From an uncultured beta proteobacterium (GTDB lineage Bacteria; Pseudomonadota; Gammaproteobacteria; Burkholderiales; Rhodocyclaceae), in NCBI GenBank assembly GCA_903848955.1, contig CAINHS010000122.1, forward strand, positions 647-64,646: a stretch of 64,000 bases of DNA, given 5' to 3'. Made by a program: the position numbers and the translations under genes. Position 1 is the first letter of the stretch; the number at the start of each line of letters is the position of its first letter. Of the stretch, positions 18,496-63,008 are shown piece by piece. The notes below the pieces were generated by a model. The model was not told where the DNA came from, made no database searches, and saw only the letters and a list, made by a program, of their open reading frames with translations.

Positions 18496-18987
18496 TCAGA
18501 CCCGGGAACGGCCGCCTGTGGCCGGCTTGCGCCACTGACCCGGGCGCGGCTTGCCGGCCACGGCAGTCTTGGGCTTGGGCACCAGCATGTTTCTGCCGGG
18601 GCCTTTCAGAAAGCTGCGGTGCGCCAGGATCGCGGCAGTGAGCTGTTCCGTGCTGAGCGTGATGGTCGCGGCCGCGCCCTTCGGCGCATGGCCGGCGAGC
18701 TTTTCCTTGACGGCCGACAGGCGCTCTGCCGCTTCACTTTTCTTGCGCGGCAGACCGGCCATGATCTCGAGCGCGTCGGGCGTCAGCCGGAAGCCGCCGT
18801 CATCGTTGCTGATCAAGCCGTGACTGGAGAGCCGGAGAAATGCTTCAGCCAGGTCCACGTCCAGGGGGATCGAGCCGTGGATCAGGTCGGCTGCAGCCAT
18901 CACTTCTGCAAGTTGCGCCGGTCGTCGCTTTGAAGCCAGCGCCATGGCCAACAGGAGAAGTGCATCCACATCGCGGATCAGGTGCAT
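18496..18987 (-). CDS. Hypothetical protein (possible winged-helix fold)
   Basis: Coherent ORF MHLIRDVDALLLLAMALASKRRPA...HGLI...GFRLTP with a basic C-terminal tail. Start placed at ATG 18987. Confidence 0.6.
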   Translation of the reverse strand: MHLIRDVDALLLLAMALASKRRPAQLAEVMAAADLIHGSIPLDVDLAEAFLRLSSHGLISNDDGGFRLTPDALEIMAGLPRKKSEAAERLSAVKEKLAGHAPKGAAATITLSTEQLTAAILAHRSFLKGPGRNMLVPKPKTAVAGKPRPGQWRKPATGGRSRV

Positions 18988-19357
18988 GGAATGGCCTTTG
19001 AATAGGGCGAAGCAGGAGCCGGCGGAACGGGAAGGGCAGGCGCGCAGCGCCTGGTCGGTGCAAACACCGGCCGGCGGCCGGGCAAGCACTGGCGAGGACG
19101 CGAGTGTAACGGTTTGCGGCACAAACCGCGGCCAGCCTTGTCCCATGGCGGCCAGGCGAAATACTAGGCACTGCGCTGCCGGCTTAAGCCGTTGAGTTTG
19201 CGGCCTTTAGGATCGGCCGGGGCGTGTCGCTGCATATTGCTTTTGTACTTGCGGCCAGACTGGCAGAGTCGCCTTGTCTTGGGAGATGCCGCCTCGACAA
19301 GGCGTAAGCACCTGATGCGTTTGCTGATTCAAAGGCTGGTGGAGTTTTCTTGCGGCG

Positions 19358-19373
19358 TGGCGCGGTTGATGCT
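19358..19373 (+). promoter_or_regulatory. Candidate sigma54 (-24/-12) promoter
   Basis: TGGCGCGGTTGATGCT has GG-N10-GC spacing and lies upstream of the receiver-domain gene pair. Confidence 0.4.
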
Positions 19374-19421
19374 TGAGAAAGCGTGCAAGCAGACATGAGA
19401 TACGAAGCAGAGCCCGCCACC

Positions 19422-19859
19422 ATGAACCCCAACCCCGGAATGCCAGTCGTCGACGATGTCGAAACCGTGCTAGAGTGCTGCCGGATGGTGTTCGCCAGTG
19501 CAAATTTCACGGTGCAAGCCGCTAAAACCGGCCATGAAGCACTCGATATGCTCGCCCATCAGGCTTTTGATGTCGTTTTTACGGAGTATCTGATGCCCGG
19601 CAGTGATGGACCCGCAGTGCTTCGCGCAATAAAGAATTCCTGGCCAGACACCGCAGTCGTGGTCATCGCCGGAGCAGCCTCGGTGGCACCCGCCAAGCAA
19701 GCAATCCCGCCCGGTGCGTCCGACTGCCTCGCCAAACCAGTTGCAGCTGACGAAGTTATCAAGGCGGCGGCACGTGCTGCCATTCAAGAGAAATGGACCC
19801 TGCGCCGGATTCCCGGTCGAGACCCGGCACAGTCCACCCACGAAGGAGAATCATCATGA
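19422..19859 (+). CDS. Atypical single-domain receiver protein (phosphoacceptor Asp->Glu)
   Basis: VVDD, FDVVFTEYLMPGSDG, LAKPV. Start uncertain (19395 or 19422). The stop overlaps the next ATG (ATGA 19856-19859). Confidence 0.7.
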   Translation: MNPNPGMPVVDDVETVLECCRMVFASANFTVQAAKTGHEALDMLAHQAFDVVFTEYLMPGSDGPAVLRAIKNSWPDTAVVVIAGAASVAPAKQAIPPGASDCLAKPVAADEVIKAAARAAIQEKWTLRRIPGRDPAQSTHEGESS

Positions 19860-20605
19860 GCAAGGCGCGCAAAATCCTCATCGTCGATGGCAACGCTTTC
19901 GAAAGAAAGGGCTTTGAACAAGTTTTGTCCGGCAAAGGCTATGCCGTCACCGCGGCATCGAACGGCGAAGACGCACTCTGGCAGTTGGCCAATGGCACCT
20001 ACGACGCGGTGTTCGCAGAACTGGCCATGCGCGGCATGAGCGGTCTTGAACTGGCCGAGCAGATTCATGCCAGCCAGCCCGGGCTGCCGGTTGCCATCAT
20101 CACCGCGGACGGCGCTGAAGCCGCCGGCAAAGGCGCCGCTGCCGCCGGCGTCGTGGAATTCCTGAAAAAGCCCGTGTCGCCCGAACAACTCGCGGATGCC
20201 GCTGCCCGTTTGCTGCCCGCCACGGAAGCCAGCGCTGCCTTGCAGGCGCAAACGCCGGAGGTGGAAAATTCGCCGGCGCAGACGCTGAGCAAGTCGGTAT
20301 TGCGCGTGAAGAACGTCGTGTTGTTCTTTCTGGCGCCCTTCGTCGGTCTGGCCTACCTTCTCGCCTTTCCCGTCTTTGCGCTGGGCATGGGCCTGTGGAT
20401 GGCGCTGCAGCAATCCGAAGAAGCCGAGCCGCAGCAACAGGCGCCGGGCAAGCGCAGCATGCTGCGAACCATTGCAATGATTCCCGCCGCGGTTTTGATT
20501 GGAGTTGCTTTCGCCGTCATCGGTCCGATACTGGGGATCGGAGTGCTGGTCTGGTTTGGTGTGCAGGCGTGGGCCAAGGTCGGGGCCAAGGCGATGGAAG
20601 CCTAG
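19856..20605 (+). CDS. Membrane-anchored atypical receiver protein (Asp->Glu) with duplicated C-terminal hydrophobic motif
   Basis: RBS GAAGGAG then MSKARKILIVDG...YDAVFAELAMRGMSG...FLKKPV, followed by two long hydrophobic segments. Confidence 0.8.
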   Translation: MSKARKILIVDGNAFERKGFEQVLSGKGYAVTAASNGEDALWQLANGTYDAVFAELAMRGMSGLELAEQIHASQPGLPVAIITADGAEAAGKGAAAAGVVEFLKKPVSPEQLADAAARLLPATEASAALQAQTPEVENSPAQTLSKSVLRVKNVVLFFLAPFVGLAYLLAFPVFALGMGLWMALQQSEEAEPQQQAPGKRSMLRTIAMIPAAVLIGVAFAVIGPILGIGVLVWFGVQAWAKVGAKAMEA

Positions 20606-20695
20606 CCGGGCAAGCGTTGCTTGCTGTCGCAAACAGAGGATGAATCAGGCTGAGGTGCTGCCACGACAACGGTGTCCTTCACTTCGCGATGCGAG

Positions 20696-20736
20696 TTGAT
20701 GTACGTCAAATCGAGAGCAGTATGTTCCTTTACTAT
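20696..20736 (+). promoter_or_regulatory. FNR/CRP-family class II promoter
   Basis: TTGAT-GTAC-GTCAA at 20696-20709 (one mismatch to TTGAT-N4-ATCAA) and a -10-like TACTAT at 20731-20736, which places the box near -41. Confidence 0.65.
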
Positions 20737-20847
20737 CCTCGGCAAAATGAATGGGTTTCGCCTCCGCTGGCGAATTTTTTGATAGACCGGGTTTTCCCCG
20801 TTCGAGACAGGACGGGGATTTCCTTTATTTTACGGGGAACGAACACC

Positions 20848-22848
20848 ATGCGTTTTTCAAGACTCGCCGCGTGGGTTGTGGCAACCACGGTTTGCCTAGC
20901 CGGCAACCTGATCGCCGGCTCAGCCGCAGCTGCCGACGACAAGGCCGCAACGCAGGCCGCAGCGCCTGTTTCGCACAAGCTCGACAACGCGAGTTGCGAA
21001 AGCTGCCACGACGGCAGGAAAGGCAAGCTGGAGGTGCCCGGCTCTCACGGTGAGAAGCGCGCCCTGTACGAAGTCAAGCAGGACAAGTATGCCAAGAGCG
21101 TGCATTCGAGAATGCAATGTATCGCCTGCCACAAGGAAATCACGGACGCTGTCGCACCGCACCAGAAGGCACCCGATGCCAAGAAAGTCGACTGCGCACA
21201 GTGCCACCTCGATTTGTGGGAAGCCGCCAAGCAGAAAGACAAGACCCAGGAAAAACTCCGCCTCGGCATAGTGGTCGAGAATGTCGCGGCCTACAACAAG
21301 TCTTTCCACGCCAAGGTGAACAAGGATGATCCGGGCAAGGTCAATGCGACCTGCAACGATTGCCATAACGTCCACAGCTTCAATGTGCCGCCGCGCGGCA
21401 CCGTCGAGCGCAAGGAATGGCACCTCACCGTGCCGCACGTATGCGGCGACAAATGCCATACCGACGAACTGGCCGACTGGACCGCATCGGTGCACGGCAA
21501 GGAGGTCACCGAGAAGCACAACGTCAAGTCGGCGGTCTGCTCGGACTGCCACAGTACCCACTCCGTTGCCGATCCGACCAAGGACGCCGGCAAGCTGGCG
21601 ATCACGGCAAACTGCGGCGGCTGCCATGCCGAGAACCTGAAGACCTACACCAAGACCTACCACGGACAGGTGAACACTCTGGGTGCCACCCACACCGCCA
21701 AGTGTTTCGACTGCCATGGCAGCCATTCCATCCAGCCCTCGACGGATCCGAAGTCGAAACTGCATGAGAACAACCGCCTCAAGACCTGCCAGAACTGCCA
21801 CAAGGGCGCTACCAAGGGCTTCACCAAGTTCGAACCCCACGGCACGTCCCACGATTTCGTGCGTTATCCCTTTATCTGGCTCGCGGCGAAGTTCATGCTG
21901 CTGTTCCTCGGCGGCATATTCGCCTTCTTCTGGGCGCATACCGCCCTCTGGTTCTACCGCGAGTACAAGGAACGCCATGAGCGCAAGCCCAGTCCGCACG
22001 TGACCACCGATCAGTTGCTCGAAGGCAAGCTCAAGGACAAGCATTTCCGGCGCTTCCCCTTGATCTGGCGCATCGCCCACCTGACTCTCGCCGTGAGCCT
22101 GATGATGCTGACCCTGACCGGCATGTCGGTGCTGTACGCAGACACGGTCTGGGCGCCCGTCGTGATGGGCCTGCTGGGCGGCCCGAAAGTCGCAGCGGTG
22201 ATTCACCACTTCTTCGCAACGCTGCTGGGAATCGTGGTTGTTCTGCAACTGGTCTATTTCGCGATTCACATCGTCAGCAACCGCAAGACCTTCGACTGGT
22301 TCGGTCCCAACTCTCTGGTTCCGCGTCGTCAGGATCTGTGGGACATTCTGGCGATGGTCAAGTGGTTCTTCGGTCTCGGGCCGCGGCCGGTTTTCGATCG
22401 TTGGACCTACTGGGAGAAGTTTGACTACTGGGCTCCGTTCGCCGCCGTGATCCTCATCGGCGCCACCGGCGTGATGCTGCTGTTCCCCAACGTCACAGCC
22501 GCTTTCCTGCCGGGCTGGGTATTCAACGTGGCGACCATTTTCCATGGCGAGGAAGCGCTGCTGGCGGCACTGTTCGTATTCACGGTGCATTTCTTCAACA
22601 ACCACTACAGACCGGACAAGTTCCCGCTGGATGTCGTGATGTTCACCGGTTCGATGCGCCTGGAACTGTTCAGGAGCGAGCACAGGGCGGAATACAACCG
22701 CCTGGTCGCTTCCGGAGAACTCGAAAAGTATCTGGTCGATGCGCCTTCGCAACCCATGACCTGGGGCGCGAAGATACTCGGCTTCGCCCTGGTCGGATTC
22801 GGCTTGCTGCTGCTGGTTCTGGTGCTGAGCGGAATATTCGGGACGTGA
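20848..22848 (+). CDS. Multiheme cytochrome c fused to a cytochrome b (FdnI/HydC-like) domain, CbcL-like
   Basis: Signal peptide. Eight CXXCH motifs (CESCH, CIACH, CAQCH, CNDCH, CSDCH, CGGCH, CFDCH, CQNCH) plus CGDKCH. Membrane domain with His in RIAH, VIHH, FHGEE and TVHFF, and a WEKFDYW motif. Confidence 0.88.
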   Translation: MRFSRLAAWVVATTVCLAGNLIAGSAAAADDKAATQAAAPVSHKLDNASCESCHDGRKGKLEVPGSHGEKRALYEVKQDKYAKSVHSRMQCIACHKEITDAVAPHQKAPDAKKVDCAQCHLDLWEAAKQKDKTQEKLRLGIVVENVAAYNKSFHAKVNKDDPGKVNATCNDCHNVHSFNVPPRGTVERKEWHLTVPHVCGDKCHTDELADWTASVHGKEVTEKHNVKSAVCSDCHSTHSVADPTKDAGKLAITANCGGCHAENLKTYTKTYHGQVNTLGATHTAKCFDCHGSHSIQPSTDPKSKLHENNRLKTCQNCHKGATKGFTKFEPHGTSHDFVRYPFIWLAAKFMLLFLGGIFAFFWAHTALWFYREYKERHERKPSPHVTTDQLLEGKLKDKHFRRFPLIWRIAHLTLAVSLMMLTLTGMSVLYADTVWAPVVMGLLGGPKVAAVIHHFFATLLGIVVVLQLVYFAIHIVSNRKTFDWFGPNSLVPRRQDLWDILAMVKWFFGLGPRPVFDRWTYWEKFDYWAPFAAVILIGATGVMLLFPNVTAAFLPGWVFNVATIFHGEEALLAALFVFTVHFFNNHYRPDKFPLDVVMFTGSMRLELFRSEHRAEYNRLVASGELEKYLVDAPSQPMTWGAKILGFALVGFGLLLLVLVLSGIFGT

Positions 22849-22896
22849 CCGGTGCGTGACGCGAAGCTTCTGTTCGCGTTTCGATTCTGATGCATC

Positions 22897-22936
22897 AAAC
22901 GGCGCTGGCGGTGATCTTTACCGCCAGCGCCGTTTC
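22897..22936 (+). terminator. Strong hairpin / probable terminator after the cytochrome gene
   Basis: 16-bp perfect stem AAACGGCGCTGGCGGT / ACCGCCAGCGCCGTTT with a 7-nt loop; the U-tract is short. Confidence 0.6.
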
Positions 22937-23049
22937 ATCTGCGGCGTGCGCCGGAGCGAGCCCGGCGCTGCTGCTTGGGATCCGGCCCGTTGCACCCTCC
23001 TGCCGGTTTCACGCCCGGCTGGCAGGATGTGCCCTGCTAGAATTGCCCG

Positions 23050-24894
23050 ATGCGCCGTGTTCAAACCGCCTTGGCCCTGCCGGGCCCGACCCCCGATAGC
23101 CGCCACGACTGGCAGACCATCCGCACCCTGCTGCCCTATCTGTGGGCATGGAAGGGCAGGGTCGTTTTTGCGCTGTCCTGCCTGCTGCTGGCGAAGCTGA
23201 CCAACGTTGCGGTGCCGCTGGTGTTCAAGGACATCATCGACACCTTTACCCTGCCTGCGGCCGACCGGATGCAACAGGCCGCCCTGCTGGTGCCGCTGGG
23301 CCTGCTGGCGGCCTACGGCGCGCTGCGCTTTTCCACGGCCCTGTTCACCGAGCTGCGCGAGATTTTCTTTGCCCGCGTCACCCAGCGTGCGGTGCGCACC
23401 ATCACGCTGCAGGTCTTCGAGCACCTGCACGCGCTGTCCCTGCGCTTTCACCTCGATCGCCAGACCGGCGGCCTGACGCGCGACATCGAACGCGGCACGC
23501 GCTCGATCGGCTCGCTGATCAGTTACACGCTGTATTCGATCCTGCCGACGCTGGTCGAAATCACGCTGGTGCTGGGCATCCTGGCCGCCCGCTACGACCG
23601 CGATTTCACCCTGATCACGGTCGGCACGCTGATTATCTATGTCGCCTTCACCATCGTCGTCACCAACTGGCGCACGGTGCTGCGGCGCGAAGTGAATGAA
23701 CTGGATTCCGCGGCCAACGTGCGCGCCGTCGATAGCCTGATCAATTTCGAAACGGTCAAGTACTTCAACAACGAACGCTGGGAACATGACCGCTACGACG
23801 AGCAGATGCAGAAGTGGGAAGTTGCACAGATCCGCAGCCAGATATCGCTTTCGTGGCTCAATCTCGGTCAGTCACTGATCATCGCCGCCGGCGTGTCGCT
23901 GATGATGTGGCGCGCCGCGGCAGGCGTCGCCGCCGGCAACATGACGGTGGGCGACATCGTGCTGGTGAATGCCTTCCTGATCCAGCTCTACATGCCGCTG
24001 AACCATCTCGGCGTGCTGTATCGCGAGATCCGCCAGTCGCTGACCGACATCGAGCGCATGTTTTCCCTGTTGAACAGCAACCGCGAGATTCAGGATGCGC
24101 CGGATGCGCGGCCCCTGTTTGCCGGGGGCCCCGACGGCAACAGCGGCGATCCCTGCGAGATCGAATTCGAGCGCGTCAGCTTCGCCTATGAAGCCAACCG
24201 GCAGATCCTCTTCGACGTCGATTTCAAGGTCGCTGCCGGCAGGACGGTGGCGGTAGTCGGTCACAGCGGTTCCGGCAAATCGACCCTGGCGCGGCTGCTG
24301 TTCCGCTTTTATGACACCACTGCCGGCTCGGTCAGGATCAACGGCTCCGACCTGCGCGCCCTGCAGCAAACCTCGGTGCGTGCCGCCATCGGCATCGTGC
24401 CGCAGGACACGGTGCTGTTCAATGACACCATCTTCTACAACATCCAGTACGGCCGGCCCGCTGCGCCGCGCGAAGAAGTCATCGCCGCGGCGAAGGCCGC
24501 CCACATCCACGACTTCATCGAACGGCTGCCAGAGGGCTACCAGACCCGCGTCGGCGAGAGAGGCCTCAAGCTGTCCGGCGGCGAGAAGCAGCGCGTCGCC
24601 ATCGCCCGGGCGCTGTTGAAGAACCCGCCTATCCTGATCTTCGACGAGGCCACCTCGGCGCTCGATTCGAAGACCGAAAAGGCCATCCAGGCGGAACTGG
24701 ATCAGGCCGCCGTCGGCCGTACCACGCTGATCATCGCCCACCGGCTATCGACCGTGATGAATGCCGACGAGATCCTGGTGCTCGATGCCGGGCGCATTGT
24801 CGAGCGCGGATCCCACCGCGCGTTGCTCGAACGCGATGGCCTATACTCGCAAATGTGGGCATTGCAGCAGCAGGAACACCTAATCGAAGTCTGA
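23050..24894 (+). CDS. ATM1/ABCB-type ABC exporter (fused permease-ATPase)
   Basis: HLDRQTGGLTRDIERG, DSLINFETVKYFNNE, Walker A GHSGSGKS, signature LSGGEKQR. Confidence 0.9.
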   Translation: MRRVQTALALPGPTPDSRHDWQTIRTLLPYLWAWKGRVVFALSCLLLAKLTNVAVPLVFKDIIDTFTLPAADRMQQAALLVPLGLLAAYGALRFSTALFTELREIFFARVTQRAVRTITLQVFEHLHALSLRFHLDRQTGGLTRDIERGTRSIGSLISYTLYSILPTLVEITLVLGILAARYDRDFTLITVGTLIIYVAFTIVVTNWRTVLRREVNELDSAANVRAVDSLINFETVKYFNNERWEHDRYDEQMQKWEVAQIRSQISLSWLNLGQSLIIAAGVSLMMWRAAAGVAAGNMTVGDIVLVNAFLIQLYMPLNHLGVLYREIRQSLTDIERMFSLLNSNREIQDAPDARPLFAGGPDGNSGDPCEIEFERVSFAYEANRQILFDVDFKVAAGRTVAVVGHSGSGKSTLARLLFRFYDTTAGSVRINGSDLRALQQTSVRAAIGIVPQDTVLFNDTIFYNIQYGRPAAPREEVIAAAKAAHIHDFIERLPEGYQTRVGERGLKLSGGEKQRVAIARALLKNPPILIFDEATSALDSKTEKAIQAELDQAAVGRTTLIIAHRLSTVMNADEILVLDAGRIVERGSHRALLERDGLYSQMWALQQQEHLIEV

Positions 24895-61683: not shown

Positions 61684-61724
61684 ATGGTAGGGGCTTTAGG
61701 CTTGATGACATTGATCATAATCAA
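61684..61724 (-). promoter_or_regulatory. FNR-type class II promoter of the CBS gene
   Basis: Perfect TTGAT-CATA-ATCAA (61711-61724) and minus-strand -10-like TACCAT (61689-61684). Confidence 0.75.
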
Positions 61725-61883: not shown

Positions 61884-63008
61884 TTGTCCGCTCTGCTGCC
61901 CCAACCCGATCCCCAAGGCCTGCTCGAATATTCGGTGGTCTATACCGACCGCGCCCTCAACCACATGTCGCAACGCTTCCAGGGCGTGATGAAGGACATT
62001 TCGCGCATCCTGAAGAGCGTGTACCACGCCAGGTCCGCCGTTGTCGTGCCGGGTAGCGGCAGCTTCGGCATGGAAGCCGTGGCGCGCCAGTTCGCCACCG
62101 GCAAGAAGTGCCTGGTCATACGCAACGGCTGGTTCAGCTTCCGCTGGACGCAGATCTTCGACATGGGCGGCATTCCCGCCGAGAGCATCGTCCTCAAGGC
62201 GCGTCGCACCGGCAGCGGCAGCCAGGCGCCGTTTGCCCCGGCGCCGCTGCAGGAAGTCCTCGCCGCGATCCGCGAGCACAGGCCGGACGTCGTCTTCGCG
62301 CCGCATGTTGAAACCGCTTCCGGCATGATCCTGCCCGATGACTACCTGCGCGCCGTCGGTGCCGCAGTGCGTGAGGTCGATGGCCTGTTCGTGCTCGATT
62401 GCGTCGCCTCGGGCACCGTCTGGGTCGATATGGTCGCCAATGATGTCGATGTCCTCATCAGCGCGCCGCAAAAGGGCTGGAGCGCCTCGCCCTGCTGCGC
62501 CCTGGTGGCGCTCGGCGAGCGCGCCCGCGCCAGGATCGACGCCACCACCAGCACCAGCTTTGCCTGCGACCTGAAGAAGTGGCTGCAGATCATGGAAGCT
62601 TTCGAGAACGGCGGCCATGCCTACCATGCCACCATGCCCACCGACGCTCTCGCCGGCCTGCGCGACGTGATGCTGGAAACCGAGGCCTACGGTTTCGACA
62701 AGGTCTGCCGCGAACAGCAGGAACTGGGCCGACGGGTGCGCGAACTGCTGGTGAGCCGGGGGTTCCCCAGTGTTGCCGCGGCAGGCTTCGAGGCTCCCGG
62801 CGTGGTGGTCAGCTACACCACCGATGCGGAGATCCAGTCAGGCAGGAAGTTCCTCAGCGCCGGGCTGCAGACCGCTGCCGGCGTCCCGCTGCAGTGCGAC
62901 GAGCCCGCCGATTTCCGCAGCTTCCGCATCGGCCTGTTCGGCCTGGACAAGTTGCACCAGCCGCAGCGGACCGTAAAGAGCCTGGAAGTCGCCTTGAGCA
63001 AGATTTGA
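61884..63008 (+). CDS. Class V PLP aminotransferase (serine-pyruvate/alanine-glyoxylate type)
   Basis: RBS AAGGAG with TTG start; PGSGSFGMEAV, HVETASG, DCVASG, SAPQKGW. Confidence 0.85.
   Translation: MSALLPQPDPQGLLEYSVVYTDRALNHMSQRFQGVMKDISRILKSVYHARSAVVVPGSGSFGMEAVARQFATGKKCLVIRNGWFSFRWTQIFDMGGIPAESIVLKARRTGSGSQAPFAPAPLQEVLAAIREHRPDVVFAPHVETASGMILPDDYLRAVGAAVREVDGLFVLDCVASGTVWVDMVANDVDVLISAPQKGWSASPCCALVALGERARARIDATTSTSFACDLKKWLQIMEAFENGGHAYHATMPTDALAGLRDVMLETEAYGFDKVCREQQELGRRVRELLVSRGFPSVAAAGFEAPGVVVSYTTDAEIQSGRKFLSAGLQTAAGVPLQCDEPADFRSFRIGLFGLDKLHQPQRTVKSLEVALSKI

Follow-up and report, generated by a model that had tools for sequence, protein, structure and literature searches.

The CbcL/MtoC/MtrH family of proteobacterial cytochromes was described between 2012 and 2018 (Shi et al., 2012; Zhong & Shi, 2018, PMC6295460). 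It involves MtoC of Dechloromonas aromatica and Gallionella capsiferriformans, MtrH of Rhodoferax ferrireducens and CbcL of Geobacter, and its members carry nine heme motifs, six helices and conserved histidines (Zhong & Shi, 2018, PMC6295460). Among the named MtoC and MtrH proteins, identity amounts to about 55%–59%, compared with about 35% between them and Geobacter CbcL, and no feature has been found that separates the oxidizing from the reducing members (Zhong & Shi, 2018, PMC6295460). For iron-oxidizing and iron-reducing Betaproteobacteria, the passage of electrons between the quinone pool and the outer-membrane conduits is so far attached to gene names only (MtoC, MtrH, CymA). Here, we analyzed a stretch of 64,000 nucleotides (the window) from an uncultured beta proteobacterium of the Rhodocyclaceae (contig CAINHS010000122.1), which carries on its plus strand a gene (20848–22848) encoding a cytochrome of 666 amino acids (P0001). 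A preliminary description of this DNA had interpreted the gene product as a stand-alone CbcL-like quinol oxidoreductase with nine c-type hemes and a diheme cytochrome b. We found that the CbcL-like assignment is right but incomplete, since the gene is a new member of the known and common CbcL/MtoC/MtrH family and has its precise home in the proteobacterial branch. Taken together, our data make it quite probable that P0001 is an inner-membrane paralogue of these proteins, which serves as an Fnr-switched gate between the quinone pool and the periplasm and is encoded by the last gene of a mobile cassette with receiver (REC) genes.

Family membership and domain architecture

When P0001 was compared with a large protein collection, we obtained more than 2,300 significant relatives, and the top ones (57%–85% identity) came mostly from betaproteobacterial metagenome bins. 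A scan of species genomes yielded 585 confirmed stretches, including Sulfuritalea, Rhodoferax, Gallionella, Georgfuchsia, Aromatoleum and Noviherbaspirillum. Genes of this family are common and thus, the window gene is not an oddity; a "stand-alone" CbcL-like gene is not by itself unusual either. As Geobacter-side reference we used seven Geobacteraceae genomes, which were reached via their PpcA loci in a scan that yielded relatives of G. sulfurreducens PCA (best 92%); GSU0274 itself is not included. Each of these genomes encodes one or two proteins with nine hemes and a cytochrome b, and these proteins align with residues 33–660 of P0001 at 31%–35% identity (E 1e-90 to 1e-111). This value matches the degree of identity of about 35% published for CbcL versus MtoC/MtrH (PMC6295460).

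The comparison with CbcL-type proteins proposed in the preliminary description was carried out as maximum-likelihood tree of 114 sequences (quick search, support by the Shimodaira–Hasegawa-like approximate likelihood ratio test, SH-aLRT), which was calculated without the named type sequences (MtoC of D. aromatica and G. capsiferriformans, MtrH of R. ferrireducens, GSU0274). P0001 falls inside the proteobacterial CbcL/MtoC/MtrH group, with the Geobacteraceae proteins as an outgroup on a long branch. Within this group, P0001 belongs to a clade of 13 sequences (support 100), all but one of which originate from metagenomes. This clade is sister (support 100) to a clade of 59 sequences, which holds the homologues of Gallionella, Rhodoferax and Sulfuritalea and also the second copy encoded by the host genome itself (C23:10994–13003; host assembly of 3.62 Mb in 151 contigs, 99.97% complete). 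The second copy is 57%–58% identical to P0001. The topology of the tree indicates that the window gene is a paralogue and not an orthologue of the classical MtoC.

The reading frame of the cytochrome gene is open from 20689 and an ATG at 20848 was taken as working start because it is preceded by the Shine-Dalgarno-like GGGGAA (20834–20839, plus strand, 8 nt 5' of the ATG), begins a Sec-type signal peptide and is shared with relatives in which the gap to the upstream gene measures only 31–97 bp. These relatives start at the equivalent MR... codon, and GGGGA(A/C) is likewise present in L085, L179, L181 and L264. The longer open reading frame from the ATG at 20689 was rejected, since it would place the signal peptide inside the protein and overrun the FNR box described below and since the short-gap relatives start at MR. 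Residues 1–28 (20848–20931, plus strand; MRFSRLAAWVVATTVCLAGNLIAGSAAA) constitute the predicted signal peptide with a hydrophobic segment at residues 6–24 and a putative cleavage site at its end. In the AlphaFold2 model this N-terminus has a low predicted local distance difference test (pLDDT) score, which is consistent with a cleaved leader.

The periplasmic c domain (residues 29–340; 20932–21867, plus strand) carries eight CXXCH motifs and one CX3CH motif in the order CESCH, CIACH, CAQCH, CNDCH, CGDKCH (the CX3CH), CSDCH, CGGCH, CFDCH and CQNCH. All nine sites are invariant across 110 aligned sequences and match the nine sites of the Geobacteraceae homologues. The fifth site varies in its spacing throughout the family, where CG(D/E/A)KCH (CX3CH) and CGKCH (CXXCH) alternate, and the 84% identical orthologue carries CGKCH. 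The CX3CH motif is therefore nothing special within this family. Eight distal histidines of the c domain (86, 154, 176, 216, 238, 272, 293, 331) are also invariant, and Pfam recognizes repeats of the cytochrome c7/c3/MtrC type over residues 50–325.

The remaining part of the protein (residues 341–666; 21868–22848 including the stop codon, plus strand) forms a six-helix membrane domain with a diheme b core of the FdnI/HydC type. Sequence profiles detect this core at low scores: Pfam Ni_hydr_CYTB matched residues 402–581 weakly (E 0.009), and the NCBIfam model of the formate dehydrogenase gamma subunit gave an E-value of 1.7e-6 for the b domain with a score far under the family cut-off. The membrane half also matched FdnI (PDB 1kqf, chain C; E 6e-4), which was the sole solved relative by sequence. 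Four candidate b-heme ligands (H411, H453, H566, H581) are invariant in 110 homologues and align with H18, H57, H155 and H169 of FdnI, which we take to be its four heme ligands; H364 and H586 are invariant as well. The AlphaFold2 model (pLDDT 84.7, predicted template modeling score 0.77) places helices at residues 341–377, 405–429, 446–477, 518–545, 557–586 and 635–665. When this model was compared with the PDB by Foldseek, FdnI was the best match (template modeling score 0.74, probability 1.00), followed by the cytochrome b of hydrogenase-1 (HyaC). For the multiheme domain, Foldseek returned no meaningful PDB fold match (AlphaFold2 models carry no hemes), so that the b domain alone was matched. 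From the conserved motifs and histidines we infer the ligation of the b and c hemes. The layout given in the preliminary description (signal peptide, eight CXXCH plus one CX3CH, FdnI/HydC-type cytochrome b with four candidate histidines) was thus confirmed by motif search, alignment and AlphaFold2/Foldseek.

The receiver cassette, its origin and candidate redox partners

Two receiver genes precede the cytochrome gene on the plus strand. REC1 (19422–19859) encodes a stand-alone receiver of 145 amino acids (Pfam Response_reg, E 2.6e-22) with a glutamate at the site of the phospho-acceptor aspartate (FDVVFTEYLMPG). Its stop codon overlaps the start codon (ATGA) of REC-TM (19856–20605), which encodes 249 amino acids comprising a receiver (Response_reg, E 1e-22) and a C-terminal hydrophobic membrane region with segments at residues 148–166 and 213–231; here too, aspartate is replaced by glutamate (YDAVFAELAMRGMSG). 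Flanking DNA was available for eight loci of the P0001 clade (window, L085, L179, L180, L181, L264, L266, L267). REC-TM (249–255 amino acids) is located directly 5' of the cytochrome gene in all eight, and a small receiver (145–166 amino acids) is found 5' of REC-TM in five (window, L179, L264, L266, L267). The phospho-acceptor site of REC-TM is occupied by glutamate in five loci, by serine or threonine in two and by aspartate in one, and the small receiver carries glutamate in those orthologues that aligned. REC, REC-TM and the cytochrome gene make up a conserved cassette of three genes, and the cytochrome gene is not isolated.

In three of the eight loci (L085, L180, L181) the cassette abuts genes for an MtoD-like cytochrome c and a second MtoC-type protein, and two of them (L085, L180) also carry MtoA- and MtoB-type genes. 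The five others (window, L179, L264, L266, L267) have no Mto genes beside the cassette within the contig. For the window this applies to the entire 64 kb, in which neither mtoA/mtrA, mtoB/mtrB and mtoD nor a hydrogenase or a formate dehydrogenase was detected. The preliminary description was thus correct in stating that such partners are not adjacent, and "stand-alone" holds for the window with respect to Mto genes but not with respect to the receivers. The Geobacteraceae cbcL homologues had neither cytochrome nor receiver genes as neighbors. This indicates that a lone gene is normal for this family and that linkage to receivers is a specific trait of the proteobacterial clade.

On contig C23 of the host assembly we observed a related arrangement (C23:1536–4899, L087), in which genes for REC, REC-TM, a nine-heme cytochrome (about 465–493 amino acids) and a separate Ni_hydr_CYTB cytochrome b stand in a row. 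The receiver pair of this set keeps the aspartate, unlike the pair of the window. Relative to the window cassette, this set represents a split counterpart, and it is possibly CbcBA-like. Split sets of this type recur beside MtoC homologues in L008, L015, L028, L044, L060, L061, L083 and L085.

As to the host, its GyrB is 94% identical to that of a lake metagenome-assembled genome (MAG) labeled Burkholderiaceae and 84% identical to that of a Propionivibrio MAG. These values indicate a member of the Rhodocyclaceae and are in line with the betaproteobacterial background proposed before. A homologue of P0001 is present in 28 of 36 other congeneric species, but none of these exceeds 62% identity and all are of the classical type. 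In one of these genomes (G012) the genes that flank the cassette in the window, encoding a hypothetical protein (18496–19146) and an ABC transporter (23050–24894), bracket a glutathione S-transferase gene and no cassette, and in two further genomes of the genus the region between the flanks differs again. The closest orthologue (84%–85% identity, L085) resides in a genome whose GyrB is just 70% identical. Moreover, the G+C content amounts to 57%–61% in the cassette versus 63%–68% in its flanks (19100–23000). Taken together, the lack of a close homologue in the rest of the genus, the G012 site, the mismatch between orthologue and GyrB identities and the G+C content suggest that the three genes were acquired horizontally as a unit.

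The preliminary description had left the redox partner unknown and had proposed a genome search for conduits of the MtrAB/MtoAB type. Here, we found genes for MtoB (PF11854, 302 bits) and for a decaheme MtoA of the DmsE family (251 bits, cut-off 192) on contig C51. Contig C23 encodes an MtoD-like monoheme cytochrome (2e-29 to PDB 4xxl, which is presumably Sideroxydans MtoD), the classical MtoC, two NapC/NirT tetraheme (CymA-like) proteins and, with the split module, the pair of nine-heme cytochrome and cytochrome b. In addition, there are giant multiheme frames at C12:17057–22612 (65–67 CXXCH), C25:2155–6883 (24 + 32) and C149:10382–13355 (24 + 11). Several of these are cut by contig ends, and they resemble the PCC3-type porin-cytochrome systems discussed for Gallionellaceae. 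Candidate redox partners are therefore plentiful in this genome, and none of them is linked to the window gene.

Putative promoter region, leader and downstream hairpins

The consensus for the FNR box was defined as TTGAT-N4-ATCAA. Upstream of the cytochrome gene, an FNR/ANR-type box (TTGATGTACGTCAA, 20696–20709) matches 9 of the 10 consensus positions, and a -10-like hexamer (TACTAT, 20731–20736, plus strand) follows 22 bp 3' of it. This spacing would place the box center at about -40.5 to -41.5 relative to the putative transcription start; class II FNR sites are centered near -41.5. The nearest orthologous locus (L085) keeps the box as TTGATGCATGTCAA and the hexamer as TAGTAT with the same spacing. 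Counting sites with at most one mismatch, the window contains six FNR-like sites versus 0.88 expected.

The regulator itself is encoded by the host. Its Fnr orthologue (C34:13513–14271) has the cysteine motif CSQCNLRELC (CX2CX5C) and an ETVSR helix, scores 250 bits with NF008365 (cut-off 228), and its gene adjoins that of a Dnr/FtrB-like regulator. Genome-wide, we counted 11 perfect boxes versus 0.47 expected from base composition, which corresponds to an about 20-fold enrichment, and 145 versus 19 boxes when one mismatch was allowed. The MtoD-MtoC operon on C23 is preceded by a perfect box at a distance of 69 bp. When the family was scanned from -350 to +60 of the operon start, a box was present at 28 of 76 homologue loci, compared with about 2.6 expected, and it was perfect at 16 of these; most of the boxes stand 100–220 bp before the ATG, as in the window. 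The FNR-type promoter of the preliminary description is therefore well supported by the 9/10 box, the hexamer spacing kept in L085, the Fnr gene and the box enrichment. These sequence data make low-oxygen control of the FNR type a credible family-wide trait, and the window gene itself is probably subject to oxygen control.

Two further boxes deserve mention. A 9/10 box is located directly before a gene for a 556-amino acid cytochrome with eight CXXCH motifs, and a cytochrome b gene comes next (C116:35119–37435, L271). Within the window, a perfect FNR box (TTGATCATAATCAA, 61711–61724) separates two divergent genes, a minus-strand CBS-domain gene and an aminotransferase-like gene starting at 61884.

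The predicted leader of the cytochrome gene contains two terminator-like hairpins (20757–20774 and 20795–20818, plus strand; z -2.1), each of which is followed by a T-run. They are largely conserved in L085 and only partly in L264, L265 and L179. Since L264 has lost hairpin 2, the idea of a conserved leader structure was dropped. An Rfam match of the leader (20757–20825) to the anti-hemB small RNA (sRNA) of Burkholderia scored 21 bits versus a cut-off of 49.5; it reflects a generic hairpin plus terminator and was judged to be due to chance. The 5' arm UCCCCG could pair either with the 3' arm of the hairpin or with the Shine-Dalgarno region ACGGGGA. Downstream of the stop codon, a short hairpin (22857–22880, plus strand; stem of 7–8 bp, T-rich tail) is followed by a long one (22897–22935, plus strand). 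The latter, which the preliminary description had named as a 16-bp hairpin, forms a perfect stem of 18 pairs (16 in its Watson–Crick core; z -5.2), and it has no U-tract. A repetitive extragenic palindromic (REP)-type or mobile repeat was rejected for this hairpin, since it occurs only once in the genome.

Proposed function and comparison with described systems

According to the reading we prefer, the FdnI-like four-helix diheme b core of P0001 with its two extra helices would exchange electrons with the quinone pool. The b core would pass these electrons to, or take them from, the periplasmic nine-heme wire of bis-His c-type hemes, and this wire may talk to soluble MtoD-type cytochromes and to outer-membrane conduits (MtoAB, PCC3-like) whose genes lie on other contigs. 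The cassette appears to have moved horizontally between distant Betaproteobacteria, and its transcription is most likely turned on by Fnr at low oxygen from a class II promoter with the box at 20696–20709.

The direction of electron flow was considered on the basis of gene content. The host genome encodes RuBisCO (409 bits) and NarG, which is cut by a contig end (773 bits for the part present), and profile searches of this genome yielded no MenD above the cut-off and no match to the MqnA/D family, so that menaquinol is an unlikely substrate. This profile suggests CO2 fixation, nitrate respiration and ubiquinone as the only quinone. Because of RuBisCO, NarG, the lack of a menaquinone pathway, MtoAB and the FNR control, we lean slightly toward electron uptake (from Fe(II) or another extracellular donor via ubiquinone to nitrate or low oxygen) rather than quinol oxidation for metal reduction, and the enzyme may well be reversible.

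Several observations weigh against this interpretation. To our knowledge, biochemical characterization has been reported for none of the proteins of the proteobacterial branch and genetic data exist for Geobacter CbcL only; the function is thus proposed by homology. There is no conduit or periplasmic cytochrome gene within the 64 kb of the window. The FNR box is intact only in the window and in L085 and has decayed in the next relatives (L264, L265). The five clade loci with a gap of 31–97 bp between REC-TM and the cytochrome gene have no box in this gap; in two of them a box is instead located in the divergent promoter region, at a distance of about 375 bp upstream of REC-TM. Both terminator-like hairpins fall between the putative transcription start and the ATG. 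As to the direction, the quinone site of FdnI is located at the cytoplasmic face of the membrane. If this also applies to P0001, electron uptake into ubiquinone would oppose the membrane potential and outward flow would be helped, which weakens our lean toward uptake. The reduced growth yield of Geobacter cells that depend on CbcL (bioRxiv 10.1101/2022.08.31.506072) is consistent with outward flow.

It is possible, though not likely, that the FNR-like box does not drive the window gene, which would then be transcribed by read-through from the REC operon, or that box and leader give rise to a short terminated transcript (sRNA or attenuated leader). The hairpins with their T-runs 3' of the predicted start, the weak sRNA-like Rfam match, the decayed boxes of L264 and L265 and the five gaps that are too short for a separate promoter would all fit this explanation. 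However, the spacing of box and hexamer is that of a textbook class II promoter and is kept in L085, boxes stand at a similar distance before 28 of 76 homologues and before the host's own MtoD-MtoC operon, the Rfam score is far under its threshold, and L264 does not conserve hairpin 2. Monocistronic transcription from the FNR promoter, as proposed in the preliminary description, may occur, given the good box, but the two terminator-like hairpins between the putative promoter and the ATG make it less certain.

An unlikely explanation is that P0001, although a member of the same family, is employed in conventional anaerobic respiration or lithotrophy of the periplasm rather than in extracellular electron transfer (EET). 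As Fnr-switched quinol dehydrogenase or quinone reductase it might serve soluble periplasmic redox enzymes, for example nitrite, NO or N2O reductases or sulfur-oxidizing flavocytochromes. This would explain why there is no conduit in the window and why five of eight clade loci are without Mto genes within their contigs. In addition, homologues occur in bacteria that seem to play no part in EET (Zhong & Shi, 2018, PMC6295460), FNR control is typical of denitrification regulons, and the host has NarG and a Dnr-like regulator beside Fnr. On the other hand, three of the eight clade loci are directly beside an MtoD-like and a second MtoC-type gene, in two of these cases together with MtoA and MtoB, and the host genome is unusually rich in EET-type cytochromes. 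Moreover, the sister clade is that of MtoC/MtrH, which is tied to mtoAB in the literature. We favor the function as quinone-to-conduit gate.

The tight association with the receivers allows more speculative scenarios. The cassette might constitute a self-contained, horizontally mobile quinone gate, in which the Glu-fixed pseudo-receiver binds the b domain and sets its activity or direction, or a redox-sensing trio. We regard this extension as improbable; if true, control by REC-TM would be the protein-level counterpart of the potential gating of Geobacter CbcL. That the cytochrome is mainly a redox sensor, which monitors the quinone pool or else the potential in the periplasm or outside the cell and signals via the two receivers with little respiratory flux, appears very unlikely to us. 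Its strict linkage with the REC and REC-TM genes across the clade, the membrane anchor of REC-TM, which could contact the b domain, and the fact that Geobacter CbcL is itself potential-gated (10.1101/2022.08.31.506072) would be compatible with such a sensor. However, the receivers involve neither the phospho-acceptor aspartate nor an output domain and there is no kinase in the cassette, whereas the nine c hemes and the four b-heme ligands are strictly conserved, as expected for a conducting wire. In addition, the related pair with normal aspartates that precedes the split module on C23 resembles ordinary operon regulation. Finally, although the membrane domain best matches FdnI and then HyaC, a membrane subunit of formate dehydrogenase-N or of a [NiFe] hydrogenase with an acquired cytochrome c domain can be dismissed with near certainty, since the NCBIfam FdnI models score only 20–28 bits (cut-offs 116–341, with 28 bits compared with a cut-off of 116), no catalytic subunits are encoded near the gene in the window or in about 90 homologue loci, and the nine-heme domain replaces the Fe–S subunit in its role.

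For the proposed gate between quinone pool and conduits, this locus adds nothing fundamentally new to the existing picture. What is modestly new is that the paralogues form a clade of their own, that this clade is obligately paired with two atypical receivers in a mobile cassette and that FNR boxes are enriched throughout the family. The boxes at 28 of 76 loci predict that these gates are induced at low oxygen, and a host that probably has only ubiquinone, together with RuBisCO and nitrate reductase, makes the uptake direction worth testing.

When P0001 is compared with described systems, CymA and the other NapC/NirT proteins have the same proposed job, which is to act as gate between the quinone pool and the periplasmic cytochromes of Mtr/Mto pathways. 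Their fold is unrelated, with a single helix, four c hemes and no b hemes. In the host genome, two genes of this kind are neighbors of the classical MtoC gene. The cytochrome b556 of E. coli formate dehydrogenase-N (FdnI, 1kqf chain C) shares the four-helix diheme core with four aligned histidines. In contrast to FdnI, the b core of P0001 is fused to a nine-heme c domain, is flanked by two extra helices and has no FdnGH partner.

Geobacter CbcL and P0001 are similar over their full length and have the nine heme sites, the eight distal histidines and the four b-heme histidines in common, and both CbcL (GSU0274) and the window gene are without cytochrome neighbors. The identity to CbcL-type proteins is only 31%–35%, as measured on the Geobacteraceae homologues and not on GSU0274. 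Geobacter CbcL, which by its functional definition is needed to reduce low-potential extracellular acceptors, oxidizes menaquinol and is expressed constitutively, whereas in the host of P0001 no menaquinone pathway was detected and the gene carries an FNR box. CbcL is potential-gated; its residue F525 affects the gating and mutation of V205 removes it (bioRxiv 10.1101/2022.08.31.506072). With a numbering deduced from a close relative of G. sulfurreducens, F525 corresponds to the conserved F576 of P0001, and the short segment that bears V205 (region of residue 263 in P0001) is missing from all 106 proteobacterial homologues.

Closely related systems are MtoC from D. aromatica RCB and from G. 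capsiferriformans ES-2 and MtrH of R. ferrireducens, which share with P0001 a length of about 660 amino acids, the signal peptide, the nine heme motifs, the six helices and the b-heme histidines. P0001 is 52%–62% identical to the homologues of Rhodoferax, Gallionella, Sulfuritalea and its own genus, in keeping with the 55%–59% published for the named members, and its host is a betaproteobacterium, as for MtoC/MtrH. Unlike these proteins, P0001 belongs to a separate, well-supported sister clade of 13 sequences. The window gene is preceded by REC and REC-TM genes and not by an mtoD-like monoheme gene as in the case of MtoC, and unlike clustered MtoC it stands apart from mtoAB, in a genome that has a classical MtoC as well, on another contig. 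As for MtoC/MtrH, however, some members of its clade adjoin mtoD, mtoA and mtoB.

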